A stretch of 64,000 nt of DNA, taken from IMG/VR virus record IMGVR_UViG_3300005581_000001, positions 33,582-97,581 of that record; one strand, 5' to 3'. The position numbers were made by a program, and so were the translations under genes. The DNA comes from a virus. The notes below the pieces were generated by a model. That model was given only the letters and a program-made list of their open reading frames with translations. It did no database searches and was not told where the DNA came from. Positions 5,300-63,939 of this stretch are shown here, piece by piece; within the stretch, counting starts at the first letter, position 1; every line of letters begins with the position of its first letter.

Positions 5300-8200
5300 T
5301 CCTTACGAAAGTCAGTTTAAAAACTCTGATATAATAAATAGATTTTTATCTGAAAATAAGTTTGTAAATAATGCTCCAAGTAATATGGAGACTGTTTATA
5401 ATGCAGAATCTAAAACTCCATTATTAGGAACTAATACTGGATTAGGAGAGTCTTCTTATGACGAAGATTTAAATTGGTATTCACATATAGATGAAAATGA
5501 TCCACAAGATTCAATAAATGAATATAGAGCTCAAAAACAATCTGCCTGGGATCAACTAGGTGCTGGACTCGGAAGAACAGCTGTAAAAGCTGCTGTTGAA
5601 ACTTCTAAACTTCCTGGGATCATAGGTGGTTTAGTTGGTGGCATTGCGGGTCAGATAAATGATGCTAGTACTGGAGAAGATAATACGAACTTTATAGATA
5701 CCGTTTTTAATAATGGATGGATAAAAGGTTTGGATTCAATTAATGAAGAAATAAAAAGTGAATACCTTCCAGTATATGTAAAAAAAGCTGTACGAGATGG
5801 TGACTTAGGAGACAAAATTATGTCTTCAGCATTCTGGGCTACCGATGGTGCTGACGGAGCTGGATTTGCATTAGGAATGATACTTCCTGGAGCAATGCTT
5901 GGTAAATTAGGTCTTGGCGCTAAAATGATTGGAGCGGCTAACAGGATGGACAAGGCTAGAGAATTATTTGCAGGGGCTGAACGAGCTGAAGAATTTGTAA
6001 AAGCTGCTAATAAAATTGGAGCAACTGCAAGAAACATAGACAGCGGTATATCTATAGGGTATAATACAGCTGCTGAAGCAGGTGCTGAAGCTACTCAAGC
6101 TGGAACAGAAACTAGAGCTAATGAAGGAAAAATAGTTAATGGGTGGAAGGCTTCTGGATATCTAAATACTCCAGAATATCAAATAGAAGCTAAGAAATAT
6201 ATCCAAAGTTTAGATGTTAAAAGAAGAAATGGACATCTAACAATGGATCAACAAAATGAATTAACTTCTGATCCGTTAAAAGTTCAAGAAGCTGTACTTC
6301 ATCAAAGATTTGAAAATGAAGTTACCTCTATGCAATCAAGTATTTTTGGTAGAAACGTAGCAATACTTTTAGGCCCAAATACATTAATGCATATGCAGTT
6401 ATTTGGTAGAATTGGAAGGAGTGCTGAAAAAATAGCTGAAAAAGGAGCTGTAGAAACAGTTGAAAATGTTGGCAGAATGTCTAAAATACTTAATAGCTCA
6501 ATAGGAAAAGGAGTTACTAAATTTGGAGAGAGAGTTGCTAAAAATACACTATCTGAAGGATTTTTTGAAGAAGGTTTGCAAACATCCACAGCTAATCAAT
6601 TTAAAAAATATGTTGCTGAAAACAGAGCTGAAGAGGTTGGTTTTGGAGACACCATACCAGACACATTTACTGAATATGCTAAAATGCTGGGAACTACAGA
6701 AGGTCAAGTTTCTGTAATGCTTGGAGGCGTTTTAGGAACTGGAATGACAAGTATAGCAGCTCACGGTCAAGCTAAACGCGAAGCTAAAATTAAGAATGAA
6801 ATAACAAATAGATTGTCAATTCCAATGAATAATCTTAATAATATATTCAATATCAATGATATATATAAAAAAGATGAAAATGGAGCTATAGTTTATAAAA
6901 AAGACGCTCAAGGAAATCCTACCACAGAACCAGATATAGATTTAGTTAAGTCTCAAGAAGTATTAAGAAGTTTGATACTTACTGACGATAAATTAAATAG
7001 ATATAAAGAGGCTGTTGATAATGGAGATAATAGCTACTTGGATGAACAACAAAGTAACGCTATGTTTCAACTAGCAAAAACAGCTGCTTATAATGGAGAA
7101 AAAGGATTGTCTTTACTTAAAGAGCAATTAGACGCTAATAGTCAATTAACTGATATTCAAGAAAGAGACAAAAATAACGATGGTAGTAAAAAAACTTATA
7201 AACAAATAGTTGATGAAACTATGGAAACTGCTAAGTTTTTACAAAAACAAAATGATAAGTTTCAAGATTTTAGTAGTACTATAATTAAATTAAATGACGA
7301 AAGACTTGATGACCCATCTAAAGCTAAAATATATAGAACCGCGTTCTTAAATGAGCTTAATAGTAGATATTTAAATGTTCAAAATAAACTTAGATTTAAT
7401 AAAGCTAAATTAGAACAATTAAATAAAAAAAGAAATGATATTTTTGAAGAGCTTGGAATAGACCCTTTATATATGTCTGAAGCTGAATCTCCTTTAATAA
7501 AAATGAAAAGCGGAATCGTATCTAATGAAGATATAAATACAAGAGCTAAAAAGACTAAAGAAGCTATTGATAGCAACGAATTAGTAAAACAAGTAGAGGA
7601 GGAATATAATAAAGTTTCTAAAGATATAGAAAAAAATAATAAAGATATTTCTGAAGTTTGGAAAGGAAATATTGTTGATAAATCATTTAAAGATTTTGTA
7701 GGTGACTATTTAGAAGTTGAAGAAGAAGCAAATGAAGATAGTTTACAAAATCATCAAGACGTTGTGGATACTATAAATTCTTTTGAAGATAAAGCTTCTT
7801 TAGTAGAATATCTTAAAGGTTTAGACCAAAAATTTAGAGATAATGATTTTATTCAAAATGAATTTAAAGACAGATATGCCTACATAGGTGAGCAAGATAA
7901 AATAAAAGAAGAATTAAAAAGAGTAGAAGAATTAGAAGCTGAGAGTCAAAAATTTGAAGAAGACGAATTGGTTGGTACTGATACAACTCCAGAAACTACA
8001 GAGACTGTCATAGATAATGATAACAATAATGGATTAGAAACTTCTCAAACTTCTGATAATAAAGAAGTAGATGAAAATGGAGAAGTATTTGATAAAGATC
8101 CTTCTAAAGAAAATAATTTAGATGATTCTACTAATCCACTAAAAGTTGCTAAAAATCAAGGAGCAGCTAGAATTATTAGTACTAATCAACAAACAGGAGA

Positions 8201-13600: not shown

Positions 13601-16600
13601 GCACAACCTTTGAAAGGCGTTTATTTTTATAGAGACAAACAAGGTAAGCCAGTTTATTTAAAATATTCTCAAGCCATAATGTCTCACGCATTAGTAAAGG
13701 GTTCTGATTTAGAAAGATTATTCAATAAAATGTCTTCTGAGCAAATAGATGAGGTTATTACTTTTGATGGCGTTAAAGTAGGATCTATTGAGCCAACTAA
13801 AATTCACGATGAAGGTGGAAACATAAAAGAAGATTTCCAACTTAATTCTCAAACTTTATATAATAGAGGTTGGAAGCTTCAACAAGACTTACCAACTAAA
13901 ACATTTAAAGATACTGCCGTAGGTTCTCAAATACAAAAAAATATATTTGCTGGATTGTTACATAATCAAGAACTTGGAAATTTTGAATTAGACGGACAAT
14001 TATACACTGGTAGAAATATAATTGATAAAATTGTAGAAACAGTTACTGGATTAACAAATAATGGTCTTCAATCATTAAAAGAAGAATTCAAAATAAGTGA
14101 TGATTTTAAAATAGGTGATATTTCTGGATTTTATAATACATTAATAGATGAATTGAAAAAAAGAGGTGGTTCTGATAATGTCATTAAAGCTTTAAAAGCC
14201 CAAACTACAATTATAGGAATACCACAATCTTCCAGCAAATTATTTAACATATTTGCTGCTGTAATGAATAGTCGATTAGTTAAAATAAAAACTAATGGAG
14301 GTTCATTTATTCAGATGTCTAATTTTGGAATGAATAAAACAGAGGTTGAAGGTAAAGGAGTTAGATGGTCTCCATTAGCAGACGAAACTACTAATGAACC
14401 ATACATTTATATTCATCCAGAAATTTTAAGACCAACAGTTAAACCTGGCGGAGTTTTAATATCTGGAGCGTTTTTATCTAAATACATTCCTGGTTGGAAT
14501 AAAGAGGATAAGGATGGTCATAAATTCACAAATGAAGAATTATTTGTTAGTTATAATGGCGGAGAACCAATTATTAGTAAAAAAATACAAGAAAATATTA
14601 TTGGATATCGTATTCCAAATCAGGGATTAGCTTCTAATGATGCTTTAAGAATTGTTGGAATATTACCAGAATCTTCTGGAGATACTATTGTAGCATATAC
14701 TGGTATTACAACTAAAACTGGTTCGGATTTTGATGTTGATAAAATGTATATAATGTTTCCTGCTGTAATAAGAAAAGAAAACAGTAAACTTTTAGAATAC
14801 GTTGATTATGATGAAAATAATATAACTAAAAAAGGTCTTCAAAACAGACTTATAGAATTATACAAATCTGTACTAACTAATACTGATGTTCATAAAGAGG
14901 TAATGAAGCCTATTGATATAGATTTTATAGAAAAAGAGCTTAACGCTTTATATCCTGAAAAATCAACAATATTTATGAATGCTTTTGATCCTGAAGTTGA
15001 TACTAAACTAAGATATTCATTTTTAGGTGGTAAAGCTGGAGTCGGTCAAGAAGCTAATGCTTTAGTTGATATTAGTAGAGAAGGTAGTTTATCCTTGTAT
15101 GATGTTAAAAGTATATTATGGGGCAATCACAATGAATTAGGAGAGTCTAAATTTGATGATGAATTTTCAGAAGAATTATCTGAAAAAGATTTAGATTATT
15201 ACGTTAACGATATGGTTAAAAATGACACTTCTAATGAAAAGAAAGAAGCTCTCAAAAATGCTTTACGTAAAGTTAAAGTTGGAGATTCATTAACAGCTAT
15301 TCTTAATGCATTTGTTGATATAGCAAAAGATCCATATATATCTAAAGGTAATTGGACGCTATCTACTACAAATGTAGGTAATATGCTTTTAAGACTAGGA
15401 GCTCATCCGTTATATGTTATTAATTTCTTAGCAAACCCTATAATTAAGCAACACGTAGATTTTCAAAAATCTAAAGAAAGTTTAACTGAAGGAACAGATA
15501 CTGGAGATAGTATTGAAAAATTTAAAAAACAAATAGTTATTGACGCTTTAAGTAAAGTAAAAGATTATAATTTAGATTTAGGTCAACTATATAAAGATTA
15601 TTTTAATAAGCTTAATATAGACTATAAGAAAACTAGATTACAACAACTATATGATCACAATGAAATATCTATAGATGAATTTACAACAAGAACATCTGAA
15701 GTAGATACTTTATTTGATACAACTTTTAAATCGTTAGTTAAAAAATTAAAAGTATCTGATGATGTTTTGAATAGTATTGTAGATAATATGAAGAAACAGC
15801 ATGAAATAGCTTTTGCGCCTAATAAATTAAATATATTTGACAACAAAAGTCTACAGTGGAATGAGTATTTGTTAAATTTAGAGTACTTTAGAAATCAAAT
15901 TAAAACCAAAACACCAAATATTAATTTTCAAATAAATCTACTTAATACTTTTAAAGAAATGCAAGAGTATAGTAAGAATGTTAGAGAGAATGTAATGGTG
16001 TCTAAATTAGATACTGATGGAATGGGGAAAAGCCATAACGACTTATTCTCACTACTTAATTTAAAAGAACAAGTTTTAGGTAAGGTTGAAAATGGTATAA
16101 AGGGCTCTATTAAAGGGTTTGAAACTAAATTTCAAGGTACAACATTAGAAGCTTATTTAAATAGCTTAGAATGGGTTAAAAACGTAGTTCAAAGCAATCC
16201 TTTGCTATTTCCTACAGGAACAGACCAAGTTCAGGGAATTTTTAACGAAGTTTCAAATGACTTGTATGGTGGAAAATTGACAAATGAAGATTTAATAACT
16301 AAATTATCAAAAGAGTACAATACTTATGCGTTAAGTAAATTCTTTGATTTATCTAAAGAAGATACTGCTGATTTGTTAAATGATTTTCCATTAAGGTTAA
16401 AACAGTTTTCTGATGCTAATAAAAGTAAATATTTTTTATTAGATGAACTAAATGTTAAAATTAGTAAATCAAAAGTTTATGGTTCTAGTGTATTTTTAAA
16501 TAATAGAAAAAAATCATCTTCTTACGAAACTTTATTTACAAATTCTTGGAGAGATTTAATCATCGACAATCCAAAATTATCTGAAGACTTAATTAAATAT

Positions 16601-23942: not shown

Positions 23943-24434
23943 TTATTCATTGTGTTCTTTTATATACTTTATTACATTATTTAATATAAATATATTTTCA
24001 AAACTCATACCAAGTACAGAGTTACATTGACCACATATTAATTTTCTTACTGAATTAGTTTTATGATTATGATCCACAACTAATCCATTAAAACAATCAT
24101 CACTATGTTTTTCACATATATAACACTTATTATCTTGTTTTAATAACATGTTATTGTAATCTTCTATAGAAATATTATAAGATCTTTTTAAATTATAATT
24201 TGTATATCTTTTTTTGTTTTTTAAATATTCTCTTTTTTTTATTTCTTGTATTTTTTCTTTATTATTTTTCTTATATTCGTTGTTTATTTTCATAAAACAA
24301 GTTTTACATCTTGATTGATAATAATTTTTTAATACATTTCTTTTATAAAAATTATCTATACTTAATTCTAATCCACATTTATTACACTTTTTTACTAAAT
24401 TTTCTTTTGTATTATTACACATATATTTTATCAT
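23943..24434 (-). CDS. Free-standing homing endonuclease, endonuclease VII (HNH-fold) type
   Basis: N-terminal CxxC...CxxC; CYIC...LVVDHNHKTNSVRKLICGQCNSVLG. Confidence 0.85.
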   Translation of the reverse strand: MIKYMCNNTKENLVKKCNKCGLELSIDNFYKRNVLKNYYQSRCKTCFMKINNEYKKNNKEKIQEIKKREYLKNKKRYTNYNLKRSYNISIEDYNNMLLKQDNKCYICEKHSDDCFNGLVVDHNHKTNSVRKLICGQCNSVLGMSFENIFILNNVIKYIKEHNE

Positions 24435-24445
24435 TTTAATATATG

Positions 24446-24477
24446 CAAATATACAAAAAATAAATGGTAAAACCTAA
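24446..24477 (-). promoter_or_regulatory. TTAGG-N19-TATATTTG promoter of the EndoVII-type endonuclease
   Basis: Reverse complement of caaatata (24446-24453) and cctaa (24473-24477). Confidence 0.65.
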
Positions 24478-24480
24478 TTT

Positions 24481-25182
24481 TTATTGATATATTTTTACGT
24501 TTTTATCATTTATTTCAAAAATATTTCCATTTGAATATAGTTTTCCAAACCTCCCGTCTTTAACTACACTTCCATTTGAAAAATAAATATCATTTTGATA
24601 TAAAATTCCATTATTTTGAATATCTTCATTTGAATGGATGTGACCAAAGCAAACTAATTGTGGTTTAACTCTATTTAACATATGATTTCTAAGGCTTTTA
24701 CAGCCACAAAATTCTAATTTTCCATCTCTATCATAAGATAAGTCTAATATTCCTTTAGGAGGGCCGTGAGACACTACTATGTCTATCCAATCAGGAATAG
24801 ATGAATATAGTTTATCCATCTTACTTCTATCTTTCATAAACCACCAATTTCCAAAATTTGGACTGATTGGACTTCCCCATATTGATACACCATCAACAAG
24901 TGTCCAATCGTCTTCTAAGTATATAATATTTAAATCTTTACAAATTTTATTAACTTCTTTTTTATTGTGATACACAAAAGAGCTGTGATTTCCAGCTACA
25001 AAAACTTTATTTTTAATTGGCAGACAAGCAAACCAGTTTATAAAATCTCTAAACTCAGGTTCATTATTATATTGATCCTTAGAATTAGATTCGTCACCAC
25101 TATGAATGACGATATCTATTTCTTCAGGAATATTTAATAATCCGTGATAACTATGGGTGTCCGAAAGGTGCCATATCTTCAT
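24481..25182 (-). CDS. Metallophosphoesterase (calcineurin-like)
   Basis: SDTH, HSGD, AGNH, SHGPP and FGHIH motifs. Confidence 0.9.
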   Translation of the reverse strand: MKIWHLSDTHSYHGLLNIPEEIDIVIHSGDESNSKDQYNNEPEFRDFINWFACLPIKNKVFVAGNHSSFVYHNKKEVNKICKDLNIIYLEDDWTLVDGVSIWGSPISPNFGNWWFMKDRSKMDKLYSSIPDWIDIVVSHGPPKGILDLSYDRDGKLEFCGCKSLRNHMLNRVKPQLVCFGHIHSNEDIQNNGILYQNDIYFSNGSVVKDGRFGKLYSNGNIFEINDKNVKIYQ

Positions 25183-31833: not shown

Positions 31834-32295
31834 TTAATGAATGTTAATATAAACTCCAGGACTTTCCTTGTTTACTGAATACCATTCATAATTATTCATA
31901 TTCTCTTCTGTTGGCAATACACCATCCATACTCATTACAGACGGAAAAACAAATTCTACATTGTCGTCTGGAATGATTCCATGAGCTGTCATCAAATCAA
32001 AAATGACCTCGGTAGCATTACCGAAGTCAAATTTTCTTTTTGATTCCCTCACAAAATGAAAGCTTATTAAAACAGGAAATTGCTTGTCTTTAAACAGTTC
32101 TTTAAATTGAGGTATTAAAAACTCAAATTCATTAGGTCTTGTCTTATAACCAATAACAACTCTTTTAGAAGATGAATATGATTGAATTCCAAGTAATCCT
32201 AAATATTTTTTAACTGTTTTAGAACAAAATATTCCTTTTGATGTTTTAACTTTACTATTCTTCAACGATGGTGTATTGTGTGGTATAAAAATCAT
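31834..32295 (-). CDS. RusA-like Holliday junction resolvase
   Basis: PSLKN...RKFDFGN...FDLM...IPDDN. Confidence 0.75.
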   Translation of the reverse strand: MIFIPHNTPSLKNSKVKTSKGIFCSKTVKKYLGLLGIQSYSSSKRVVIGYKTRPNEFEFLIPQFKELFKDKQFPVLISFHFVRESKRKFDFGNATEVIFDLMTAHGIIPDDNVEFVFPSVMSMDGVLPTEENMNNYEWYSVNKESPGVYINIH

Positions 32296-32314: not shown

Positions 32315-34138
32315 TTAAATATCAGACATAATTATAATAGGCTCTTCTTCTGTTCTTTCAACATTAAAAGCATTGTCAGAACCGTAAGTATAATCAATCT
32401 TACCTAATACACCTTCAGCTATACTTCCTTGAACTATCCACTCTTTTTTCATCTCCACACCAAATCTATCTATTATTTTTTGAACCTCTATTTTTTTTTG
32501 AATTTTTTCAAAAGCGTTTTTAAGAGAATCGATTCTAGATTCTATAGGTGAAGGTTGATCTAATTGTTTTCGATTGTTACGTTTATTTAAAATTGGTTTA
32601 TTTTTTAAAGAATAATTTAAATTCTGAGATTCATCCCAATCTATTGATTTGTAGCAATAAATATTTTCCTCTTTACCTACTATATCCCCTTTGCAATTTT
32701 CGTCATAAATAACTCTTTTTCTTGCCTCTATGTAGTTTAAATGATAATTTACTAGTAAATCTTTATCTCCACTATTTAAGTTAATAAAATTTATAGAGTA
32801 ATTGCAAATCAATCTGTTAAGACTTATTCCATTTTTACCATCCAAAAAATAAGGATCGCTTAATATCCTATTTTGATTAGCAATAGTATAATTTATTAAA
32901 TAAGAATTAATAAACAGAAAGTTTAATATCTTATCGATATCATAAGTCGGTGTATGAATTCTAAACTCAATAGTCTCTTTATTACCAAAAATTAAAGGTA
33001 TAAGGTTGTGTGCATAATATCTTTTTTTGATATTCCACTTTTGATTACCATTAGGGTCTGAAGGGTGATTTTTAACGTTGTTTAAGTCACATTTATAATC
33101 ATAAAAGCTACTACCTTCAGTTAAGTGAGTGAACAAAACATCAAAGTTTCTATTTACTTGTTCCTTATTAGAATAATCTATAGAAGGTTCTAATTTAGAA
33201 TTTATTTGATGAAATGGAAATGGCTCTGAATAATTTTTTCTTTTTATTCCAAAATTATATTTTTTATAAAGTGGAAATAAAGAAAATATTTCTTCTTGAT
33301 AATTAGTTATTAATTTATAAAAAGCTAATATGAATTCAGGTGTTCTTGGTACATTTCCAATATGTAAATGTAAAGAGCAATCATCGTTATATTCAGTTCT
33401 TTTTTCTAATTCTTTAACGCAATCAATAAGGGCTTTAATTCCTTTTGCACCACTTAAAGGTATTGTTACATATTCTAATCCAGCTATACTACCATCTCTT
33501 AAAGGTATTAAGGGAAGTGCATTTAATTTTTCTTCTGGAAGAATACCTTTAATTGTTTCAAATTCAAATCCAAAAGTTAAATCTTTAAGTATTTTACTAT
33601 ATTTTTGAATAGTGGTATTTATTACAGGATTATAATTTTTATCATATCTAATTATATGATTATTCATCATTCCTTTTGAGTCATAAGGTAATGATTCTTT
33701 ATATTCCCTTTTAACCGTTCTAATCAAATTAAACTGATATGCACTTTTTAATGATATATGATAAAAATTACCACTAGATAATTCTTCTCTAAAAGATCTA
33801 TTTATTATATTCTCATTAATACAAACATACATTTTTTTATCTTTGTCTATTAAATATGCATTACTAAAATCAGTATTAAAATAGCCAAAAACAAAATCGG
33901 AATTTTTTTCCATCTCAATTATTCCGTAAGTTAAATTATCATTTTTTAATTGATAATTTTTAAAAGTATTATTAAAAACTACTCTTCCAGTATTCATTCT
34001 AATATATCTTCCATCAATTAAGTAAACATCTCCTGAGTTTTCGATATTACTATCTCCAATTAAGTAATATTTTTGATCTATTAGTCTGCAATTAGATTTT
34101 TTAGATACTTTACCACTTATCGTTATAACTTCATCCAT
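32315..34138 (-). CDS. Putative amidoligase (glutamine synthetase/GCS-fold COOH-NH2 ligase)
   Basis: FGFEFE, RDGSI..LEYVT.PL, SLHLHIG and TIEFRIH motifs. Confidence 0.8.
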   Translation of the reverse strand: MDEVITISGKVSKKSNCRLIDQKYYLIGDSNIENSGDVYLIDGRYIRMNTGRVVFNNTFKNYQLKNDNLTYGIIEMEKNSDFVFGYFNTDFSNAYLIDKDKKMYVCINENIINRSFREELSSGNFYHISLKSAYQFNLIRTVKREYKESLPYDSKGMMNNHIIRYDKNYNPVINTTIQKYSKILKDLTFGFEFETIKGILPEEKLNALPLIPLRDGSIAGLEYVTIPLSGAKGIKALIDCVKELEKRTEYNDDCSLHLHIGNVPRTPEFILAFYKLITNYQEEIFSLFPLYKKYNFGIKRKNYSEPFPFHQINSKLEPSIDYSNKEQVNRNFDVLFTHLTEGSSFYDYKCDLNNVKNHPSDPNGNQKWNIKKRYYAHNLIPLIFGNKETIEFRIHTPTYDIDKILNFLFINSYLINYTIANQNRILSDPYFLDGKNGISLNRLICNYSINFINLNSGDKDLLVNYHLNYIEARKRVIYDENCKGDIVGKEENIYCYKSIDWDESQNLNYSLKNKPILNKRNNRKQLDQPSPIESRIDSLKNAFEKIQKKIEVQKIIDRFGVEMKKEWIVQGSIAEGVLGKIDYTYGSDNAFNVERTEEEPIIIMSDI

Positions 34139-36093
34139 TATTTATAATTTTTATCTATTATTTCGTCTAAGAACATTAAATAGTCTTCATTAATTTCGAT
34201 GATTTCTTGAACAAAATCTTCTTCTTTGAATTTAGAAAGAGTATCTACGCTTTCTTGAATTTGTAAATAAATAGGAGACATTAACATATCTACAGATTTT
34301 TTTATACAATCTTTTTCAATTTTATTAATCTCTATTTCTTTATCTTCAGTTTCATCATCACTAGTTACTTCTAGGTTATTTAATTTACATAAATCAACAA
34401 ACTTTCCTTGTATTGAATTATTTTCTATGTTTTTATTTATAAAAGGAAATTTTGAATCTTGTTTAATATCTAAAGATAATTGATTGTTTTTATTGTATAA
34501 ATCAACTGCTGAAAAATCATCTTTAACACTTTGTTTTTCCAATAATATAGTATTAACTAAAGAGCCTTGATCTATGTAATAAATTTTACTACTACCTAAA
34601 GGACAAACATTACCAGTAAAAGAAGTTCTTTTAAAGATAATTGTTTTAGATTTTTGGTGATAGCTAACTTTACTACTTATTTCAATAATAGGATGCTTAG
34701 ACATTTCTGATAAATCCCAAATATTATAATTTTTGATTTTTTGATCAATAACTTCATAATCAAGTTTTGTTTCAAGCATAATTCCTTCATAAAAATAATG
34801 TAAAGATGGAACTTTTTTATTTTCAGTTGTAAATGGAGTTATAGTAAATTCATCTTCAGCATTTTCAACTTCGTCTTCATTAAAATATCCATATTCTAAA
34901 TCAAAAGGCCTATCAATCATTGTTTTAGTTTTTTCTTCAGCTAATTTTACATCTTTAGTTAAAGACACAAATCCGTATTCTTTAATCCAAACACAAATTC
35001 CACTTATTAAATGGCCATTTCTATTGTATCTTAATTTATTAAAAGTTATGGGGGATTTAAAAATTCTAACGTCTTTTTCGTTTAAAATTTCTTCTTCCTT
35101 TTCGTTCTTTTTTGACTCTTTTCTTAAGTCCTCCCACTCAGTATCTTGTTCCGTATCTTTCCTTCTAACGTCCCATTGATATCCGCAAACATTATAATGT
35201 TTCTTAATTGTAGCTGGTTTTTGAGAAGTATTCTTTCTTGAAATTTCAAATTTTTCAGCATTAGCAATATTTCCATCAGTTATTTTGTAGATTGTATTTG
35301 GGCTAAAGCTAAATAAATCTTCATTTGCAATTCCTCCAATAGCTTCTAAACTTTCTTGTAATGAGGAAATGTATAAACTATTTTTAGATTCTTTATAATA
35401 ATATAAAGGTCTTTCTTCTAAATCAGCACCCTTATCGTAATCATCTAATCTTGACGCTCCTTTAAATGCATATAATATATTAGGCTCTAATGTGTTTGTA
35501 AATAATAAAGCAGCCCCTCCTACGTAGTCAGATAATACTTTAAAGTTTTTATTTTGATATATGATTTCTAATAATATTTCAGAATCAATTTTATTTCTCT
35601 TAAATGTATTTACTCCGTATGCATTAACTTCTTTTACATCGGTTTCCAATCCATGCATTTTTGCTAAATCATTTTGATTATATAATGTTCCATTATGAAC
35701 GCCTACAAATTCAAAAGATTTTTCATAGTCTCCAAAACCAAAAGGATGAGCGTTATCTGAATTTACATTTCCGCTACTAGATTTTCTAGTATGCCCTATT
35801 ACAGTTGGTATTAAAACAGGGGTATCATACCCCTGTTTATATAAAAAATCACTATAATGTTTAGAGCCTGTAATTCCATAATAGATTTCTCCATCTGTAC
35901 TTATCCCACAAGAATCACCGCCTCTTGAATCATTATATAATCCTTGAATATCAAATTTAGCTTTGTTGAAAGTTTTAACACTCTTACCTGCCCAACCGAA
36001 TATTCCACAAGATAAAATATTCATCTTTGGTTTAAAAATTATTATTCCTAATAAGTGTATTGTTAATAATATTAATATTATTTTTACTTCCAT
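34138..36093 (-). CDS. Class II (Ntn) glutamine amidotransferase with long C-terminal extension
   Basis: CGIFG, RGGDSCG, GHTRKS, NAHPF, HNGTL and DSE motifs. Confidence 0.85.
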   Translation of the reverse strand: MEVKIILILLTIHLLGIIIFKPKMNILSCGIFGWAGKSVKTFNKAKFDIQGLYNDSRGGDSCGISTDGEIYYGITGSKHYSDFLYKQGYDTPVLIPTVIGHTRKSSSGNVNSDNAHPFGFGDYEKSFEFVGVHNGTLYNQNDLAKMHGLETDVKEVNAYGVNTFKRNKIDSEILLEIIYQNKNFKVLSDYVGGAALLFTNTLEPNILYAFKGASRLDDYDKGADLEERPLYYYKESKNSLYISSLQESLEAIGGIANEDLFSFSPNTIYKITDGNIANAEKFEISRKNTSQKPATIKKHYNVCGYQWDVRRKDTEQDTEWEDLRKESKKNEKEEEILNEKDVRIFKSPITFNKLRYNRNGHLISGICVWIKEYGFVSLTKDVKLAEEKTKTMIDRPFDLEYGYFNEDEVENAEDEFTITPFTTENKKVPSLHYFYEGIMLETKLDYEVIDQKIKNYNIWDLSEMSKHPIIEISSKVSYHQKSKTIIFKRTSFTGNVCPLGSSKIYYIDQGSLVNTILLEKQSVKDDFSAVDLYNKNNQLSLDIKQDSKFPFINKNIENNSIQGKFVDLCKLNNLEVTSDDETEDKEIEINKIEKDCIKKSVDMLMSPIYLQIQESVDTLSKFKEEDFVQEIIEINEDYLMFLDEIIDKNYK

Positions 36094-36103
36094 TTTATTT
36101 TAA

Positions 36104-36910
36104 TTATATTGTTACTAGTTCTCTTTTTTCACTATTAATATTAATTAATAATTTAGTTGCTAAATCTAAATTAGCAGTATCTATTGCCTCTCTAACTTGT
36201 TCTGAATACAAATCTATTAATTCGTCAATTTCATTGTTTAAAACAGTCTCTATTGCCTTAATTGATTGTCTGTATACCCATCTCATATTTTCTTCAGATT
36301 TAATCCAAAAATTAGATAATGCTCTACATTCAACTCCAAAATCTTTTACTCTAAAAGACCCTGCTTTTCCATATAACTCTCTTCGACGCGTATCATTGTC
36401 TTTGAAAAGAGCTGGTAAAGTAACAAACATATCAAAAGCTTTTACAATTTTTTCAGATGTTTCAAATTGAGGATTTTCGTAGCCAAAAGCTACATGTCCA
36501 CCTGCACATCTTAAATTAGTATTATTATCAGGCGGCTCATTAATAGATTTTGCATAGACATTAAAATCTGGCTCACATCCAAAAGTGGTTGCTTGCAACG
36601 ATCTTAAATATTTTTTATTAACAACACCGCTCACGGCATCGCTTAAATAATATCCATGGATGCCTGCTAATATGTCTAAATAATCTATACAAGTTTTATG
36701 TGCGTTGACCCACTCATCTTCAGTTTTACAAGGCGGAATATTGTACTCAAACATAATTCCATCTTCTTGAATTGCGTGTCCATATTCACTAATCTTTTTT
36801 GGATTTTTTTTAGTTCCTCCTTCAGTTAATCCTTCTGCAGAAACTATTTCTTTATCATCGCAAATAAATGTTTCTGGATCTGCACCTAATGTTATATTAA
36901 ATTTATTCAT
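36104..36910 (-). CDS. phiEco32-like COOH-NH2 ligase type 2
   Basis: GADPE, QEDG..EYNIPP, FGCEPD, AGGHV, RRELYGKAG.FR.K.FGVE.R.LSNFW. Confidence 0.85.
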   Translation of the reverse strand: MNKFNITLGADPETFICDDKEIVSAEGLTEGGTKKNPKKISEYGHAIQEDGIMFEYNIPPCKTEDEWVNAHKTCIDYLDILAGIHGYYLSDAVSGVVNKKYLRSLQATTFGCEPDFNVYAKSINEPPDNNTNLRCAGGHVAFGYENPQFETSEKIVKAFDMFVTLPALFKDNDTRRRELYGKAGSFRVKDFGVECRALSNFWIKSEENMRWVYRQSIKAIETVLNNEIDELIDLYSEQVREAIDTANLDLATKLLININSEKRELVTI

Positions 36911-36927
36911 TTTTCTGTTTATTTATT

Positions 36928-37611
36928 TTATAATCTTAAATAGTTTTCAATTAAATTCAAGCATTCTTCAACTGTGTTTTCTGGACAATTACTATATTCT
37001 GGATGACCTTGTATACATAAAGATCTTGTATTAGGATAAAACACTATTTCACATTCTTCAAAGTTTTTAGGTAATTCTTTTTCAGAATTTATACCATCTA
37101 AATATGTATTTGAAAGAAAATGAGTAGCTGTTGCTAATATTTCATAACTTTCTTTTGGAAGATTGTAAGGAAACATCATTTGATGATGTGTAGAAGTTAT
37201 TTGAAACTCTCCATTAATTCCTAAGTATTTCATGTCTAATGGATGAGAACCACTTAATCCATGACCACTAACGTGTTGGATTAATTTTCCGAAATTCATA
37301 ACAGTCAAAAACTGAGCTCCTCTGCATATCCCTAATTTAGGAACTTTATACATTCCACTTCTGTTAAACATATAATCGTTTTCAGTAGAATCTCTTTTTT
37401 CATTTATACTTGTATATCTACCCTTACTTTCTCCATAGAAACTTGGACTAACATCTTCTCCTCCTGTAAACAAAACTAAATCTATTTTTATAAAATCTAT
37501 ATTTTCTTTACAATCAATTGAAGTGACTTCAAATCTTTTTGATAAAAATTCTACACAAGCACCGTGTCCAGCAGAACTATTAACTAATACTGTTATTTTT
37601 TTCTTATTCAT
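36928..37611 (-). CDS. Class I glutamine amidotransferase / peptidase C26-like (copy 1)
   Basis: TGGEDV, GICRGAQ, HHQ and QGHPE catalytic motifs. Confidence 0.85.
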   Translation of the reverse strand: MNKKKITVLVNSSAGHGACVEFLSKRFEVTSIDCKENIDFIKIDLVLFTGGEDVSPSFYGESKGRYTSINEKRDSTENDYMFNRSGMYKVPKLGICRGAQFLTVMNFGKLIQHVSGHGLSGSHPLDMKYLGINGEFQITSTHHQMMFPYNLPKESYEILATATHFLSNTYLDGINSEKELPKNFEECEIVFYPNTRSLCIQGHPEYSNCPENTVEECLNLIENYLRL

Positions 37612-37616
37612 TTTAT

Positions 37617-38330
37617 TTATTTTAATAATTTATTAATTTCATTTACTGTGAATTCACAATTAAATTCTTCTGGATGCCATTGAACTCCTAATATAGGTAA
37701 TTCAATGTGTTTAAATGCTTCAATCGTTACAGGCATATCAACTCTATTATCAATATGACCTTCTTTATTGAAATATCTCCAAGTAGCTGTTGTTTCTTGA
37801 TTAGAATAACATCCTCTAAATTGTTGAGAATATGCGATTAATTCCAATCCATTACCTAATACCTCAACTGATTGATGATGCATTGTATTAATATAATACT
37901 CTTGTTCACTATTAGTAAATTGAAGTTTTTGTCTAGTAGACTGCCTATCATCTCCTTGATGATGCCCAATTATGTGTTGATTTAAATTACCTCCTAAAAA
38001 GCAATTTATAGCCTGCATTCCTCGACAAATACCTATAATAGGTTTGTTTGCTTGAATAAATTTAGGAAGTAATAAACTATCTAAATATTCATAATGTTGA
38101 TTAGCTCTTCCATCCATAGCGCCTGGCACTTTTCCGTACAAAGCAGAATTAACATCAGCCCCTCCTGGAGATACCAACACATCTATTTCATTTTCGATAT
38201 TGTCAAAATTGTCTAATGTAGAAATTAATCTAACATATCCAAACTGACTAAAGAATTGCATATAAGGCATTGTTTGACCTACTTTTCCATTAAAAGCGTC
38301 AGCATAAATACCAATGATTTTTTTATTCAT
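37617..38330 (-). CDS. Class I glutamine amidotransferase / peptidase C26-like (copy 2)
   Basis: PGGADV, GICRGMQ, HHQ and VQWHPE motifs. Confidence 0.85.
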   Translation of the reverse strand: MNKKIIGIYADAFNGKVGQTMPYMQFFSQFGYVRLISTLDNFDNIENEIDVLVSPGGADVNSALYGKVPGAMDGRANQHYEYLDSLLLPKFIQANKPIIGICRGMQAINCFLGGNLNQHIIGHHQGDDRQSTRQKLQFTNSEQEYYINTMHHQSVEVLGNGLELIAYSQQFRGCYSNQETTATWRYFNKEGHIDNRVDMPVTIEAFKHIELPILGVQWHPEEFNCEFTVNEINKLLK

Positions 38331-38343
38331 TATTTCTTTTTAT

Positions 38344-39039
38344 TTATTTTAATTTTAATTTAAATCCTTTAATATTATCTGTCTTATTATTTATAACATT
38401 ATTAATTTTACTTATACTACAATTATATTCAATAGATAATTCTTTTATATGCGACCATTCTTTTATAAAATTACCGTTTAAATCATATTGTAAAATAGCT
38501 TTTCTTTTTTTAATTCCAGATATTGGTATTATTATATTAGCTAAATTTATTCTTTCATTTGTAATTTCTGATTCATATGACCAAATTTCATTCTTAAGGG
38601 GTCTATTTCTTAATCTAGCACATTTAGCTATTCCTGCTACACTATGATTTAATAAATTTGCAGCTTTAGTACAACTTTCGTATTTACATATAAACTTACC
38701 ATTTAATGAAAATCTATATACTGGAATTTTATTTCTACCACCTAATTCTTGAACATTTTGAAACATATTATATCCCTTATCTGTTTTATATGATTCATAT
38801 AAATCTATATAATATTGTTCTCTTTTTAAAATATCAATATTTTGTTCAATATTTTCAATTACAATTATTTTAAAAAAATCTACTCCATTTTTATTGTATG
38901 AATTTTGTAAATACTTACAATGATGATTATTTTTTTTTAAACGATTAAAGTGTTCTTTTTTTCTTCGTGAAAAATTAGTTGTACTTCCAATGTATTTTTT
39001 ACCATTAATTAAATTAATAATTGCATAAATTACTTTCAT
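38344..39039 (-). CDS. GIY-YIG homing endonuclease with NUMOD1-like repeats
   Basis: VIY...YIGST...R, REQYYI, GYN; repeats VYRFSLNGKFI and LQYDLNGNFIKEW. Confidence 0.85.
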   Translation of the reverse strand: MKVIYAIINLINGKKYIGSTTNFSRRKKEHFNRLKKNNHHCKYLQNSYNKNGVDFFKIIVIENIEQNIDILKREQYYIDLYESYKTDKGYNMFQNVQELGGRNKIPVYRFSLNGKFICKYESCTKAANLLNHSVAGIAKCARLRNRPLKNEIWSYESEITNERINLANIIIPISGIKKRKAILQYDLNGNFIKEWSHIKELSIEYNCSISKINNVINNKTDNIKGFKLKLK

Positions 39040-39064
39040 ATATTATTGTATTAAATTATACATA

Positions 39065-39096
39065 CAAATATATGTATTATTTTTTAATAATCCTAA
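39065..39096 (-). promoter_or_regulatory. TTAGG-N19-TATATTTG promoter of the GIY-YIG endonuclease
   Basis: Reverse complement of caaatata (39065-39072) and cctaa (39092-39096). Confidence 0.65.
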
Positions 39097-39137
39097 TAAT
39101 TCACTAATTATTTTATAATTATTTTTATTATAATTTT

Positions 39138-39545
39138 TTATTTTGGTAATTGTAATTGTCTTACTAAACTTAATTTTATAAGTAATATATTCATTTCGCT
39201 TCCATTTGTTGATGTATAAGGCATATTACCAATTATAGATCCAGGAGCCATCCATTCTATTACATCTAAAGCGTGATTTCTGTTTAAATCTAATAATAAT
39301 ATTCTTTTTAATCCAGGATAATAACTACGTCTCATCTTTATAAATAAATCTCTAATTTTATATTTATTTAAATAAGGCATCATAGCACAAAAAGCATAAG
39401 CGCTCGCTAATTGACAATTATCTGTTGGAGCTTCTATATATTTAAATTCCGTTCTATATCCTCCTTTTATGGATATTATTACAGTATTAGGTTCACGACT
39501 CATATTAAAATCTTCTACTTCTCTTGGATCTTTAATTTCTTTCAT
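39138..39545 (-). CDS. Hypothetical protein within the amide-ligase cluster, 135 aa
   Basis: Overlaps the end of the ATP-grasp gene. Confidence 0.55.
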   Translation of the reverse strand: MKEIKDPREVEDFNMSREPNTVIISIKGGYRTEFKYIEAPTDNCQLASAYAFCAMMPYLNKYKIRDLFIKMRRSYYPGLKRILLLDLNRNHALDVIEWMAPGSIIGNMPYTSTNGSEMNILLIKLSLVRQLQLPK

Positions 39546-40440
39546 TGTATTTTTCTATTAAAAGTTTTGGCAATTCTTCTTTGTATTTTTCTAATGTAAC
39601 TTCTCCGAATGATGGCGCTGAATTCACTTCAATTACTATGAAATCACAATACGGTCTTTCGTCGCCATTTTCATCAATATTATTTTGAACTCTTAAATCA
39701 CAAGCTCCAAAATCTAATCCGCAAGAAACTACTGCATCGGTACAATGTTTAACTATTTCATCCCAATTTGAAGGTTTATCAAAGTTTTCATTGCCTTCTA
39801 AAATCCACACAGAGTTATCATCGTGTCTTTGCCAAGCATTAGGATGATCTTTAAATTCAGTTTTTAACATTTTTCTACAAGAGTAAAAACATCCATTTTT
39901 AGTACAGTGAAGCCTATATTCTTTATTAAAATTAATAAATCTTTCAAAAAGATAATTATCTAATTTTTTATCTTTTGCCCAGTTTTCTAATTCTTTTTGA
40001 GACTTGAGCAGATAGTTGCCAGTTCCTCTTGATCCAAAAAAATGTTTTGCTACAATAGGATATTTTAAATCCATAGGATCTACGTCAAAATCTTCGCTTT
40101 CAGATTCAATACTTCTATCTTGAAATTTTGATCCATTAAACATATACCATTGAGCTGTATTAACTCCTCCAGCACTAAAACATTCTTTCATTCTAAATTT
40201 AGAAGAACTATTTCTAATAGCTTCTTTAGAATTTAATTCAATTCTTTTACCTTCTAATGAAGACCTGTCAACTAATTCAGTTAAAGATCCAAATCTTACA
40301 ACTGATCTAAATGGTAATTTTGCAATTTCATATCTTAATTTATTATGAGATGGATGACGACTACGTATCATAGGTCTGTATTTATTACCATTAACATCTC
40401 CAATTGATTTTCTTAAAACTCTTTTAACTAATACTCCCAT
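39532..40440 (-). CDS. ATP-grasp peptide ligase (RimK/YheC-like)
   Basis: PIVAK...GSRGTG, EYRLH, GLDFGACD and IEVNSAP motifs. Confidence 0.85.
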   Translation of the reverse strand: MGVLVKRVLRKSIGDVNGNKYRPMIRSRHPSHNKLRYEIAKLPFRSVVRFGSLTELVDRSSLEGKRIELNSKEAIRNSSSKFRMKECFSAGGVNTAQWYMFNGSKFQDRSIESESEDFDVDPMDLKYPIVAKHFFGSRGTGNYLLKSQKELENWAKDKKLDNYLFERFINFNKEYRLHCTKNGCFYSCRKMLKTEFKDHPNAWQRHDDNSVWILEGNENFDKPSNWDEIVKHCTDAVVSCGLDFGACDLRVQNNIDENGDERPYCDFIVIEVNSAPSFGEVTLEKYKEELPKLLIEKYNERN

Positions 40441-40862
40441 TCGTTATATATTTTAACATTGTTTTTTGTTTCTTGCATTTTCATCCACGAACACCAATCT
40501 CCACACTCTATTTTTTCAAGGTTTGAAGAATCGTAATTAAATAAATAAATAAAAGCTTCTCCATAAGGAGTTTCTATTGTTTCTTTATTGTAATAATTAT
40601 CTTCTTTATCAAAGTCTTCAGAATATCCTTCTAACTGATCTAATTTTTTTTGTATGTCTTCATCTGCCTCAAAAACTTCCATAATTATTGAAGTAGACCC
40701 TTCATTTATTACAGCAGGATATCTATCATTTACATTAAACATTGTGAATACAGGTTCAGAATTAAATGTTCCAATATATTCTGATTTCCCTAATGTATAA
40801 TGATTATGCATTCCTTGCCTTAGAGAACCATAAACTGCTACTAATTTTTTTTCGTTTTTCAT
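40428..40862 (-). CDS. Gamma-glutamylcyclotransferase (AIG2-like)
   Basis: VAVYGSLRQG...YPA...LDQLEGY...GDW. Confidence 0.9.
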   Translation of the reverse strand: MKNEKKLVAVYGSLRQGMHNHYTLGKSEYIGTFNSEPVFTMFNVNDRYPAVINEGSTSIIMEVFEADEDIQKKLDQLEGYSEDFDKEDNYYNKETIETPYGEAFIYLFNYDSSNLEKIECGDWCSWMKMQETKNNVKIYNEWEY

Positions 40863-40892: not shown

Positions 40893-41915
40893 TTAAAAAG
40901 GTATTTCTATTAGTTCCATTAAAATCTCTTTCGCTACTTTTTTACCTTTAGCAGCAACTAAATCACTAAAATCTTTTGATTTATATGATTTATGTATCTG
41001 TATTTGAGCTATATCATATTTCATTGATATTTTAGCCCCAAATTCTTTGCCCCAATTAACTTCTTTATCATAATCATTATCATACAATAAAAATATAATT
41101 TCAAATCTTGATTTTAATTCGTCAATAACTTGTTGTTTAGGCATAACTCCCTCAGCTTGTAATGACACTGCTGGTATTCCACAAACATCATTAATAGCCA
41201 TAACGTCTTTTAATGATTTAGTTATTATTAATACATCTCCTTTTTCAGGTAACTGTTCCCAGCCCTGCCAAACTGATTCGTTATGATTATTAATCCATTT
41301 GTAATGCTCGCTTTCTGGCTGATAAATTTTATAAGTTATTTTTCCATCTTTACGTTCTTCAAATACATATGCCAATTTTTCAGCTAATACAATTTTATCT
41401 CCATAAAATAAATGACTAACTGGCTGTACTTTATATCTTAATAAAGTTTTATGAGTTATTCCAAATAAAGACCAAAATGCAAAATCGTACAAATGAAATT
41501 CTCTTGCTTTTTTTCCAAGTTTAAAAGAATTAACTGTAGCTATCATTTTTTCTCTAGACATTCCTTGAGCTGAAGCATTAATATTAGTTTTAAATGTATT
41601 TTTTATTATAAATTGACCATCTAAATTTGCATCTAATACTATTTTACTCATAGCTTCAAAAAAATCTAATCCAAACTTTAATTGTACAAATTTAATACAA
41701 TCTCCTGCTCCTAGCAAAAAGTCTTTAAAACAAACTTCTCCATTTTCGCCTATAAAGAATCCAAATGAAGCATTTTCTTCATCTCTTAATGGGGATTTAA
41801 TTGTCTTATTAAATACAAATTGTTCTGGTAAATACATTTGATATATTTCTATATCAGTAAGCTCGTTTAATAAAGCTTCTTTTGTTACGAATTTTTTATT
41901 TAAATTGATTACCAT
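40893..41915 (-). CDS. DNA primase (crAss-like, TOPRIM)
   Basis: SPLR.E..SF, FKDF..GDC, ITKSLKDVM, YDND and KDFSD motifs. Confidence 0.8.
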   Translation of the reverse strand: MVINLNKKFVTKEALLNELTDIEIYQMYLPEQFVFNKTIKSPLRDEENASFGFFIGENGEVCFKDFLLGAGDCIKFVQLKFGLDFFEAMSKIVLDANLDGQFIIKNTFKTNINASAQGMSREKMIATVNSFKLGKKAREFHLYDFAFWSLFGITHKTLLRYKVQPVSHLFYGDKIVLAEKLAYVFEERKDGKITYKIYQPESEHYKWINNHNESVWQGWEQLPEKGDVLIITKSLKDVMAINDVCGIPAVSLQAEGVMPKQQVIDELKSRFEIIFLLYDNDYDKEVNWGKEFGAKISMKYDIAQIQIHKSYKSKDFSDLVAAKGKKVAKEILMELIEIPF

Positions 41916-61920: not shown

Positions 61921-62486
61921 TGAAATTATTTACAATGGTAGATTTCTCGCTCCAGGTTTCAGAAGAAGCTTGGGGCGTTTTGCCATTTAAGGCAATACTA
62001 AAAAGAGATAAATCTAGACAAAAAGAAACAGCATTTAAAGAGATGTTATTTATATATTATTATTCAGACATTAGGTCTGACTATGTAGATATGACAAACA
62101 ATGAAGTTAGATGTAAAGAGATAATAAAAGATATTGGTTTAGACGCTGATTGGAAAATAGACAACGTAATTAGTGAAGCTATTAAGTTTTATGAAAAAAT
62201 GTCTATTAGTCCAATAGCTAAACTATACAAGAGCTCATTGAAGTCTGCTGATGATATATCAGATTACCTTCTAAAAACAAATGAATTACTTGATGAAAGA
62301 ACTAGTAGTGGCGGAACGGTAACAACGCTTCCAATGATTGTAGCTGCTAATAAAGGAATACCAGATATTATGCGTAATCTTAAAGCTGCTTATAAAGAAG
62401 TTTTAAGCGAACAAAAAGAAATGGACGGAAGAAATAAAGGGAGTAGAACACTTAACGCATTTGAAGATGGACTTAACTACGAATAA
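61920..62486 (+). CDS. Conserved crAss-like protein upstream of the terminase region, 188 aa
   Basis: RDKS..KE.A.KEM.FIYY..D.RSDY motif. Confidence 0.55.
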   Translation: MKLFTMVDFSLQVSEEAWGVLPFKAILKRDKSRQKETAFKEMLFIYYYSDIRSDYVDMTNNEVRCKEIIKDIGLDADWKIDNVISEAIKFYEKMSISPIAKLYKSSLKSADDISDYLLKTNELLDERTSSGGTVTTLPMIVAANKGIPDIMRNLKAAYKEVLSEQKEMDGRNKGSRTLNAFEDGLNYE

Positions 62487-63939
62487 GGAGATATATTTTA
62501 AAGATGAAGCTAGAAAACTATTATTTAGCGGAGTATCAAAGATGGAGCAAGCAGTTGCTTCCACAATGGGCCCCAAAGGTAAGACGGTGATTATATCAAA
62601 TCAATATGGAGACCCAGAAATAACTAAAGACGGAGTTAAAGTAGCTAGAGAGATTTATTTTAGAAATGCTATAGAGAATATTGGAGCTAAAATAGTGAAA
62701 GAAGTTGCTGAATTACAAGTTGATTTAGCTGGAGATGGAACTACAACAGCTATAGTATTAGCTAATGCTTTTATACAAAACCTTAAAGACTTTGATTCAA
62801 ATGAAATAAACAAAGCTTTTGATGAGATTATACCTAAAGTAATTGAGCAACTAAAACTAGGTTCAAAAAAATTAGAGCATAAAGACATTAAATACCTTGC
62901 TAGCATATCAGCTAATAACGATATACATATTGGAGAAATTATACAACAAGCTTATAATCACGCAAGTATAATTAAAGTAGAAGAAAGTAATGACAATGAA
63001 GACTCTTTAGAGTTAATAGATGGTATGTCGTTACCAGTATCTTACTTTTCAAAACACTTTATAAACACAAATAAAAAAGCTGAATGTAATTTTGAAGACC
63101 CATATGTTTTATTAATAGATGGTAAGTTAGAAAATCTTAAATCATTTGAAACTCCAATTAAGCAAATAGCAGAAAACAATGAGTCCTTGTTAATTATTAC
63201 AGAAGGTTTATCTGAAAATTTACTAAGATTACTTGAATCGAATGTATTAAGTGGATCACTTAAGTTATGTGTTATCAAAGCGCCTGGATTTTCTCAATAT
63301 AGAAAAGATTTACTTAGTGATATTGCCGACTTTACTGGAGCTGATCTAATAAGCAATCTTACTAAGCAGTATAGTCTAACATCATTTGGTAGATTAAAGT
63401 CTTTAAAAGTAACTAAAAATAATAGCATACTAGTTAAACATAGCGATGTTGATATTAAAGAATACATAGACGACTTAAAGGCTTTGTCAAAACTTAAAGA
63501 ACTAACTAAGCAAGATAAGGAATTAATAGAACAAAGAGTAACAAATCTTACTGGCAAGATATCTATAATTAAAGTTGGAGGAATTTCTGAAATAGAAATG
63601 AAAGAGCGTAAGGATAGATATGATGACGCAGTCCTGGCAACAGCTTGTGCGTTAGAAGAAGGTATCGTCCAAGGAGGTGGAGTTGCTTTGTATAATACAA
63701 ATCAAGTAGTGGTTAAAACAATTAAAAATTTATCACATAACTCAGTAGAGTTGGGAATTTTGATGAGTTTAAATAAACCTATTGAAATAATTGGAGTTCC
63801 AGCTTTGACTAATATGTTTGAAAAGAATATAATTGATCCACTTAAAGTTACTAGATGTGCATTAGAAAATGCGGTATCTGTAGCTAAAACAATACTATCA
63901 ACAGATACTGTTGTGTTGAACGAACGCCAATGGACTTAA
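62467..63939 (+). CDS. groEL: GroEL-like chaperonin, ~490 aa
   Basis: TMGPKG, ITKDGV.VA, AGDGTTTA, KAPGF, EEGIV.GGG and IIDP.KVTR.ALENA.S.A motifs. Confidence 0.92.
   Translation: MDLTTNKEIYFKDEARKLLFSGVSKMEQAVASTMGPKGKTVIISNQYGDPEITKDGVKVAREIYFRNAIENIGAKIVKEVAELQVDLAGDGTTTAIVLANAFIQNLKDFDSNEINKAFDEIIPKVIEQLKLGSKKLEHKDIKYLASISANNDIHIGEIIQQAYNHASIIKVEESNDNEDSLELIDGMSLPVSYFSKHFINTNKKAECNFEDPYVLLIDGKLENLKSFETPIKQIAENNESLLIITEGLSENLLRLLESNVLSGSLKLCVIKAPGFSQYRKDLLSDIADFTGADLISNLTKQYSLTSFGRLKSLKVTKNNSILVKHSDVDIKEYIDDLKALSKLKELTKQDKELIEQRVTNLTGKISIIKVGGISEIEMKERKDRYDDAVLATACALEEGIVQGGGVALYNTNQVVVKTIKNLSHNSVELGILMSLNKPIEIIGVPALTNMFEKNIIDPLKVTRCALENAVSVAKTILSTDTVVLNERQWT

Follow-up and report, generated by a model that had tools for sequence, protein, structure and literature searches.

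The 64,000-nucleotide stretch of viral DNA analysed here (positions 33,582 to 97,581 of the IMG/VR virus record IMGVR_UViG_3300005581_000001; hereafter the window, with coordinates counted from its first letter) carries a cassette of nine open reading frames (ORFs), running on the minus strand from 40862 to 32315, in which three ligases are combined with three enzymes of the glutamine amidotransferase (GATase) type and a gamma-glutamyl(amine) cyclotransferase (GGCT). This cassette is, with near certainty, the crAss-lineage form of the amidoligase cassette known from phages of the phiEco32/LUZ24 type. Its genes are real and conserved and evolve under purifying selection, and are thus more than chance ORFs. 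The phage itself is crAss-like, as judged from the similarity of its DNA primase, which matches Cellulophaga phage phi14:2 (Crassvirales) best and gut crAss-like phages next, with Flavobacterium phages also among the main matches, and from a Pfam crAss_CARG1 domain in the ORF at 795-3464. A crAss-like phage with the cassette is on record in phi14:2, whose RefSeq entry annotates it; in the literature searched, no paper on the cassette in crAss-like phages was found.

In order of transcription, the cassette encodes GGCT, an ATP-grasp ligase, a 135-aa protein, a GIY-YIG endonuclease, two class I GATases (C26a and C26b), a COOH-NH2 ligase, a class II GATase (GAT-II) and Amidoligase_2. A preliminary description made from the sequence alone had given this parts list for a crAss-like phage; ORF calls returned the nine genes at exactly the coordinates it gave, and Pfam and PHROGs bore out each gene. 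Packing is tight, with gaps of 5-30 nt or overlaps of 1-14 nt everywhere except around the endonuclease gene. The primase gene (40893..41915, minus strand; phrog_12622, 1e-66) marks the upstream boundary and a RusA-like resolvase gene (31834..32295, minus strand; phrog_1682) the downstream one, with an exonuclease and a ribonucleotide reductase also on the downstream side, placing the cassette in an early/replication region that runs on one strand throughout. A promoter and terminator scan of the block performed no better than on shuffled sequences and placed no terminator within it, and megablast of the block against deposited phages returned no match. IMG/VR was scanned with the ligase as anchor, giving 65 loci, and gene neighbours were counted over 79 dereplicated loci.

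The COOH-NH2 ligase (36104..36910, minus strand) is a GCS2-like carboxylate-amine ligase of the phiEco32 kind, type 2, scoring 31.8 bits against PF14395 (cut-off 25) and 8e-69 against phrog_3815. Among deposited phage records 312 contain a homologue, the hosts including Pseudomonas, Escherichia, Vibrio and Aeromonas. It is followed by GAT-II (34138..36093, minus strand; Pfam GATase_6), a class II amidotransferase of the N-terminal nucleophile (Ntn) kind that consists of an N-terminal extension, the glutaminase domain, a conserved C-terminal domain and an acidic, variable tail. The long ORF has its catalytic Cys at position 29, which the profile places at residue 1 of the mature PurF/GlmS chains; together with Arg80, Asn111-Gly112 and Asp147 (numbered from Met24), this Cys is invariant in 16 sequences. 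In class II amidotransferases the Cys, Arg, Asn-Gly and Asp residues of the site bind the free amino-acid end of glutamine, and from their retention GAT-II is either a true glutaminase or an enzyme that hydrolyses a gamma-glutamyl compound whose alpha end is free. The 28-aa extension ahead of the Cys (window 36010-36093) is strongly hydrophobic, with a mean hydropathy of 2.4 over 19 residues, and a start at the ATG at 36024 would leave a short MNILS propeptide. Nine of the 16 aligned relatives keep this extension, as does the phi14:2 annotation, and the other seven begin Met-Cys; candidate explanations for the extension are a propeptide, a membrane anchor and an artefact of T-rich sequence. 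Beyond residue ~200 GAT-II has no Pfam match. Its C-terminal domain was modelled by AlphaFold2 (AF2) with a predicted local distance difference test (pLDDT) score of 80.7 and matched no solved fold in the fold search (best Z 2.7); neither Pfam nor this search recognised in it an acceptor domain of the phosphoribosyltransferase, SIS, AsnB or GltS type.

The stop of GAT-II overlaps by 1 nt the start of Amidoligase_2 (32315..34138, minus strand), a glutamine synthetase (GS)-like ligase whose Pfam match is borderline (PF12224, 22.5 bits for a cut-off of 22) and which matches phrog_2443 (1e-38) over residues 4-411. It is built of a conserved, lineage-specific N-terminal domain (~1-185), the catalytic core (~186-500) and a variable tail. 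A PDB profile search with the alignment found no solved relative. Stand-alone homologues of the N-terminal domain amounted to truncated fragments, and the ESM Atlas held no usable match for this domain or for the C-terminal domain of GAT-II. The two genes adjoin each other in 63 of 68 dereplicated loci, in both possible orders (38 and 25).

The third ligase is an ATP-grasp protein (39532..40440, minus strand) matching phrog_2599, "S6 glutaminyl transferase", at 7e-29. Its Pfam score lies under the cut-off (20.4 bits versus 27), and of the NCBIfam families RimK matches best, with PurK, MptN and CofF next, every one far under its cut-off; a single-sequence search of PDB gave marginal PurK matches only. 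On these profile matches, the protein belongs to the ATP-grasp fold and is distantly RimK-like, of the alpha-L-glutamate ligase type, with a RimK-type specificity that is putative. Its start overlaps by 13 nt the first gene of the cassette after the primase, which encodes a GGCT or AIG2-like gamma-glutamyl(amine) cyclotransferase (40428..40862, minus strand; Pfam GGACT 1.6e-17, phrog_2520 2.4e-26) in whose translation the YGSL motif and the Glu of the EGY motif are visible. GGCT precedes the ATP-grasp gene in 23 of 41 dereplicated loci, and in one crAss subclade C26a stands directly before it. The window encodes a single GGCT; a second GGCT-like gene is found upstream of DnaB in loci L072, L074, L075, L082, L084, L085, L090, L092 and L099, and in tandem with the first in L101-L109.

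The two class I GATases, both of the Peptidase C26 family, are C26a (37617..38330, minus strand; Pfam Peptidase_C26 2.3e-26) and C26b (36928..37611, minus strand; Pfam 4.7e-16, phrog_7218 1.6e-35). Both have the Cys-His-Glu triad, which is kept in 107 of 110 relatives. In a quick tree C26a falls in a separate, long-branched clade (SH-aLRT support 99, branch length 1.22) made up of most of the crAss branch and two other contigs, and C26b groups with the C26 genes of non-crAss cassettes. By its position in the tree, C26a is an old separate paralogue and a lineage-specific addition. A recent duplication of the class I GATase is ruled out by the same tree, so that the "doubled class I GATase" of the preliminary description stands as two C26 genes but not as a duplication. 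Its characterisation of the cassette as expanded was likewise too strong: 46 of 69 dereplicated loci have C26 immediately ahead of the COOH-NH2 ligase, with the order never reversed, and since most non-crAss phage contigs have this arrangement it is to be regarded as standard. The nearest solved structures to C26a are Lin1909, 7d4r, PuuD and GuaA-A. The closest characterised relatives of the C26 proteins include hydrolases of gamma-glutamyl amides (PuuD, gamma-glutamyl-CDP-amidate hydrolase) and the ammonia-supplying subunit A of GMP synthase. As relatives of both kinds match far under the curated cut-offs, the C26 sequences fit a nitrogen donor and an eraser alike.

The phage amidoligase cassette is said to have been described from genomes by Iyer, Abhiman, Burroughs and Aravind in 2009. 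What two citing papers (PMC10580990, PMC11706807) ascribe to that work are proposals only, namely a wall modification that blocks superinfection, or secondary metabolites. That the cassette has no established product, as the preliminary description held, agrees with the literature searched, where none was found either for the phiEco32/LUZ24/PaP3-type cassettes or for the present form; both are co-directional and lie in the early/replication region. The kinship it proposed with the phiEco32-type core is also upheld, LUZ24-like phages carrying the same parts (PMC3890496) and Kuravirus NJ01 and Aeromonas phage BUCT695 encoding, like the window, a COOH-NH2 ligase type 2, an Amidoligase_2, a class II GATase and a RimK-like ATP-grasp protein, with GGCT in NJ01. 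Identities between the window and phiEco32/LUZ24-type proteins are only 22-34%, and the gene order differs, being in the latter COOH-NH2 ligase, a ~200-aa protein, amidoligase, GAT-II and ATP-grasp. The crAss version has two C26 genes and a longer GAT-II and amidoligase with extra domains. In 34 non-crAss loci, NJ01 and BUCT695 among them, the ~200-aa protein is encoded between COOH-NH2 ligase and amidoligase. It has no hidden Markov model match in the window, and hhalign detected no similarity between it and the proteins of the crAss cassettes; its absence is treated as a variant feature that does not exclude the window from the cassette type.

Much closer is phi14:2 (NC_021806; Crassvirales, Steigviridae), in which genes g037-g041 are annotated as GGCT, ATP-grasp, COOH.NH2 ligase, GAT-II and amidoligase. 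They occupy the same site, from primase to RusA-exonuclease, in the same order as in the window, with identities of 31-53% (37% for GGCT with g037 and 53% for ATP-grasp with g038; 43% for the neighbouring primase with g036), and share both the GAT-II N-terminal extension and the amidoligase N-terminal domain. In contrast to the window, phi14:2 lacks the C26 and 135-aa genes and has a uracil-DNA glycosylase gene between amidoligase and RusA. Most of the uncultured non-crAss contigs (IMG/VR L028-L067) have, in this order, C26, COOH-NH2 ligase, the ~200-aa protein, amidoligase, GAT-II and ATP-grasp. They resemble the window in the position of C26 directly upstream of the COOH-NH2 ligase and in the adjacency of GAT-II and amidoligase, but have one C26, mostly no GGCT, the reverse GAT-II/amidoligase order and the ~200-aa protein.

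Comparable combinations of enzyme folds occur in cellular metabolism. In the Puu/Pau route of polyamine catabolism, the GS-like PuuA and the C26 protein PuuD put on and take off a gamma-glutamyl group, and in butirosin biosynthesis BtrJ (ATP-grasp) and BtrG (an AIG2-like cyclotransferase) form a gamma-glutamyl ligase/remover pair. Both join a ligase with a C26 hydrolase or a GGCT-type remover, as does the cassette, but without orthology to it, the family matches being far under cut-offs. The phage cassette goes beyond them in having three ligases and an Ntn glutaminase, and differs in having no oxidising or transferring enzyme for a "protected" intermediate.

Whether the genes co-occur across relatives bears directly on the proposal that they form one pathway, and they were found to do so and to stay syntenic: the crAss-like loci of the ligase-anchored scan keep the entire block, in order, between primase and RusA. 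A fairer test of presence and absence was obtained by scanning IMG/VR with the primase as anchor and counting loci with enough downstream sequence. The cassette directly follows the primase in 28 of 28 informative loci with a primase identity of at least 44%, and in 21 more distant loci (primase identity ~44% or less) RusA and/or the exonuclease stand directly after the primase and there is no cassette. From this split the cassette looks like a single old gain between primase and RusA, kept by one crAss-like branch and absent from its sisters. Ratios of non-synonymous to synonymous substitution rates (dN/dS), computed against the close relative L005, are lowest in the block for C26a (0.06), followed by the COOH-NH2 ligase (0.07; 0.11 for the primase), and range from 0.18 to 0.34 for C26b, GAT-II, amidoligase, ATP-grasp and GGCT (0.34 for the latter); the 135-aa gene has the highest value, 0.52. 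Conservation of the DNA is somewhat lower in the block (78-83%) than in its flanks (88-91%).

The GIY-YIG gene, by comparison with relatives, is a free-standing mobile homing-endonuclease insertion outside the pathway. It encodes a GIY-YIG plus NUMOD1 protein (38344..39039, minus strand; Pfam, PHROGs), and the stretch of ~750 nt that holds it (38357-39106) separates the 135-aa gene from C26a. The three closest relatives (L003-L005) lack this stretch, and in them the two neighbouring genes lie ~18 nt apart. This absence rules the gene out as a pathway member; the preliminary description had listed it, in brackets, within the run. In another relative, L009, a GIY-YIG gene is found one position upstream, between ATP-grasp and the 135-aa gene. 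The amidoligase gene of the same contig is split (13869-14739) at its most conserved motif, KWNIxTR | YYxxNLIPLIFGN, by an insert of ~870 nt containing a 237-aa ORF that, judged by eye from its translation, resembles an HNH-type endonuclease. The insert matches the group I intron family RF00028 of Rfam with 49.9 bits (gathering score 50; E 1.6e-11) and, with its endonuclease-like ORF, suggests that a gene of the cassette is used by an intron as its homing site. In L023 (5308-5729; contig shared with L086/L167) the COOH-NH2 ligase gene is split at the conserved RCAG | GHV by ~420 nt in which no ORF of at least 30 aa and, by Rfam, no intron or other match was found; either a divergent intron or a genuine splitting of the gene would account for this. 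Also, L003 has an extra ~370 nt (6129-6499) between C26b and the COOH-NH2 ligase that is not in the window.

The 135-aa protein (39138..39545, minus strand) gave no Pfam, PHROG or NCBIfam match. Its AF2 model (pLDDT 84, predicted template modelling score 0.77) is predicted to have a GNAT-like fold, the 50 fold matches listed all being proteins of the GNAT-type acyltransferase fold with moderate Z of 6.1-8.6; the glycine-rich acyl-CoA loop (Q/R-x-x-G-x-G/A) is not visible after the "LLLD" strand in the alignment. The family, here called U135, is large and without a Pfam name (1031 representatives at E<=1e-3 in a full HMMER search), and none of its members matches Pfam, acetyltransferase families included. 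Its invariant motifs are N-C-Q, D and Y.S.N.S.M, and it gives the impression of an enzyme family yet to be characterised, with a cysteine among its conserved residues. Deposited phages hold no U135 relatives, and searches with single representatives of non-crAss members found nothing in IMG/VR or deposited phages. Within the cassette clade the gene is optional, being absent, single or doubled, and crAss-like contigs may have as many as four of them, frequently in tandem, some of them remote from any amidoligase cassette (L156, L157, L160, L164-L166). As the family also occurs away from the cassette, its tie to the pathway is loose: the gene is present in the run, as described, but is not cassette-specific.

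Taken together, the enzymes of the cassette would most likely form a cytoplasmic pathway, dependent on ATP and on glutamine or glutamate and expressed with the replication genes, that makes amide bonds of the gamma-glutamyl type and then trims them, the acceptor being small, a metabolite or a short peptide. Its invariant core would consist of the GCS2-like COOH-NH2 ligase, the GS-like Amidoligase_2, the RimK-like ATP-grasp protein and one true glutaminase, GAT-II, these being regarded as obligatory since C26 and GGCT are absent from some cassettes. From the neighbour counts we infer functional units of one ligase and one glutamine-type hydrolase. GAT-II and Amidoligase_2 would be one such unit, in which glutamine-derived ammonia is delivered to an acyl-phosphate made by the ligase, or a gamma-glutamyl amide made by the ligase is cleaved; C26b would serve the COOH-NH2 ligase likewise, and C26a would be an added third enzyme of the glutaminase/hydrolase kind. 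GGCT, presumably coupled to ATP-grasp in translation, would take off the gamma-glutamyl group as 5-oxoproline. The preliminary description had proposed a system of writers and erasers, but as far as the sequences go the three GATase-type enzymes are equally well read as nitrogen donors or as catalysts of biosynthetic deprotection. The chances appear evenly balanced that the cassette is a pathway of gamma-glutamyl amides on a small acceptor with its hydrolase-type enzymes acting in one of these two capacities; a reversible mark on a macromolecule is probably not what it makes.

Several observations weigh against this small-acceptor pathway. All of its chemistry is read from family membership, since none of the members has an established product, substrate or phenotype, and the matches of ATP-grasp and Amidoligase_2 to curated models are weak. 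C26 is absent from phi14:2 and undetectable in NJ01 and BUCT695, and GGCT is absent from some cassettes, indicating that neither is an obligatory partner of the ligases. Longer, fused forms of the COOH-NH2 ligase, or glutaminase-ligase fusions, were not found, which is a weak negative. RimK-family enzymes also act on proteins, which keeps a protein target among the candidates, and the hydrophobic extension of GAT-II could point to the membrane.

In a first alternative, a rather unlikely scenario of reversible protein tagging modelled on RimK-type polyglutamylation or on pupylation-like gamma-glutamyl-lysine bonds, the ligases would act as writers that tag a protein of the host or the phage with glutamate or a short peptide, and C26, GAT-II and GGCT as the erasers that remove them. 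The RimK family as best match of the ATP-grasp protein is consistent with this, as is the action of GGACT-type enzymes on gamma-glutamyl-amine bonds, stated in the name of the Pfam family. Papers from the Aravind group, moreover, take ligases with these folds, where linked, to be peptide ligases, sometimes with protein targets (PMC4431377). Nevertheless, the block contains no conserved candidate substrate, its 135-aa gene being optional and its product GNAT-fold-like and without a Glu-rich end; the GAT-II residues for a free alpha-amino and alpha-carboxyl group fit a gamma-glutamyl compound that is free more readily than a tag attached to a protein, and the supposed erasers are dispensable in several cassettes.

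Modification of peptidoglycan precursors or other envelope building blocks in the cytoplasm, such as amidation of stem-peptide carboxylates leading to superinfection exclusion, is improbable. The chemistry is established elsewhere, since MurT/GatD and AsnB1/LtsA carry out glutamine-dependent amidation of stem-peptide carboxylates with a GATase and a ligase. A membrane-like N-terminal extension of GAT-II in many members would suit such a role, which is also among the proposals ascribed to Iyer et al. 2009 in the citing papers (PMC10580990; PMC11706807). The extension is, however, absent in 7 of the 16 aligned relatives, and Pfam and PHROGs recognised no wall-binding or nucleic-acid-binding domain in the proteins of the block, and no Mur-ligase-like one. 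The host range is a further difficulty, in that Poseidoniales archaea are not known to have peptidoglycan. Amidoligase and GATase genes are nonetheless reported in predicted Poseidoniales viruses, and in a mycobacteriophage (PMC11706807).

Two further possibilities carry small probabilities. A pathway resembling Puu/Pau could attach gamma-glutamyl groups to a polyamine or another abundant amine of the cell and so sequester, detoxify or reroute it, with the C26 proteins as the matching hydrolases. C26a matches PuuD, the "probable glutamine amidotransferase" 7d4r and the NCBIfam gamma-glutamyl-GABA hydrolase, the Puu pathway itself pairs a GS-like ligase with a C26 hydrolase, and a universal target would suit the very wide host range of the cassette. 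These are, however, matches at the family level only, far under curated cut-offs; three different ligases and GAT-II exceed the needs of such a pathway, and Amidoligase_2 is only distantly GS-like and by sequence has no solved relative. The other possibility, just as slight, is that each ligase has its own nitrogen donor among the GATase-type enzymes, none of which would then be an eraser: C26a for ATP-grasp, C26b for the COOH-NH2 ligase and GAT-II for Amidoligase_2. They would form a three-module glutamine-dependent line that amidates up to three carboxylates of one acceptor, which could be an oligo-glutamate-type metabolite or the stem peptide of a peptidoglycan precursor. To our knowledge, such a line has not been described for any virus.

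Hypermodification of DNA or nucleotides, with ligases and amidotransferases decorating a base, would explain the site between primase and RusA/exonuclease/ribonucleotide reductase and recalls the amidoligase and glutamine amidotransferase Pfam matches that Lee et al. 2021 report in contigs encoding thymidine-hypermodification genes (PMC8989533), but is very unlikely, since sister crAss lineages with the same replication module lack the cassette and no deoxynucleoside monophosphate hydroxymethylase, 5-HMUDK, aGPT-Pplase, DpdA or TET/JBP was found by Pfam and PHROGs among the ORFs scanned, which were most of the larger ones in the 64-kb window of a ~98-kb genome.

Outside the cassette, the window also encodes a GroEL-like chaperonin (62461-63939; phrog_5725, 5e-117) and, at 23943-25182, an endonuclease VII adjoining a calcineurin-like phosphoesterase.

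The cassette is among the most widespread enzyme sets of tailed phages without a known product, and what is known of its kind is not changed by its occurrence in this phage. One branch of crAss-like phages, however, keeps it at a fixed site under purifying selection and its sister lineages do without it, offering a natural comparison of presence and absence, and phi14:2, a cultured carrier with the five-gene core, provides an experimental system in Bacteroidota.

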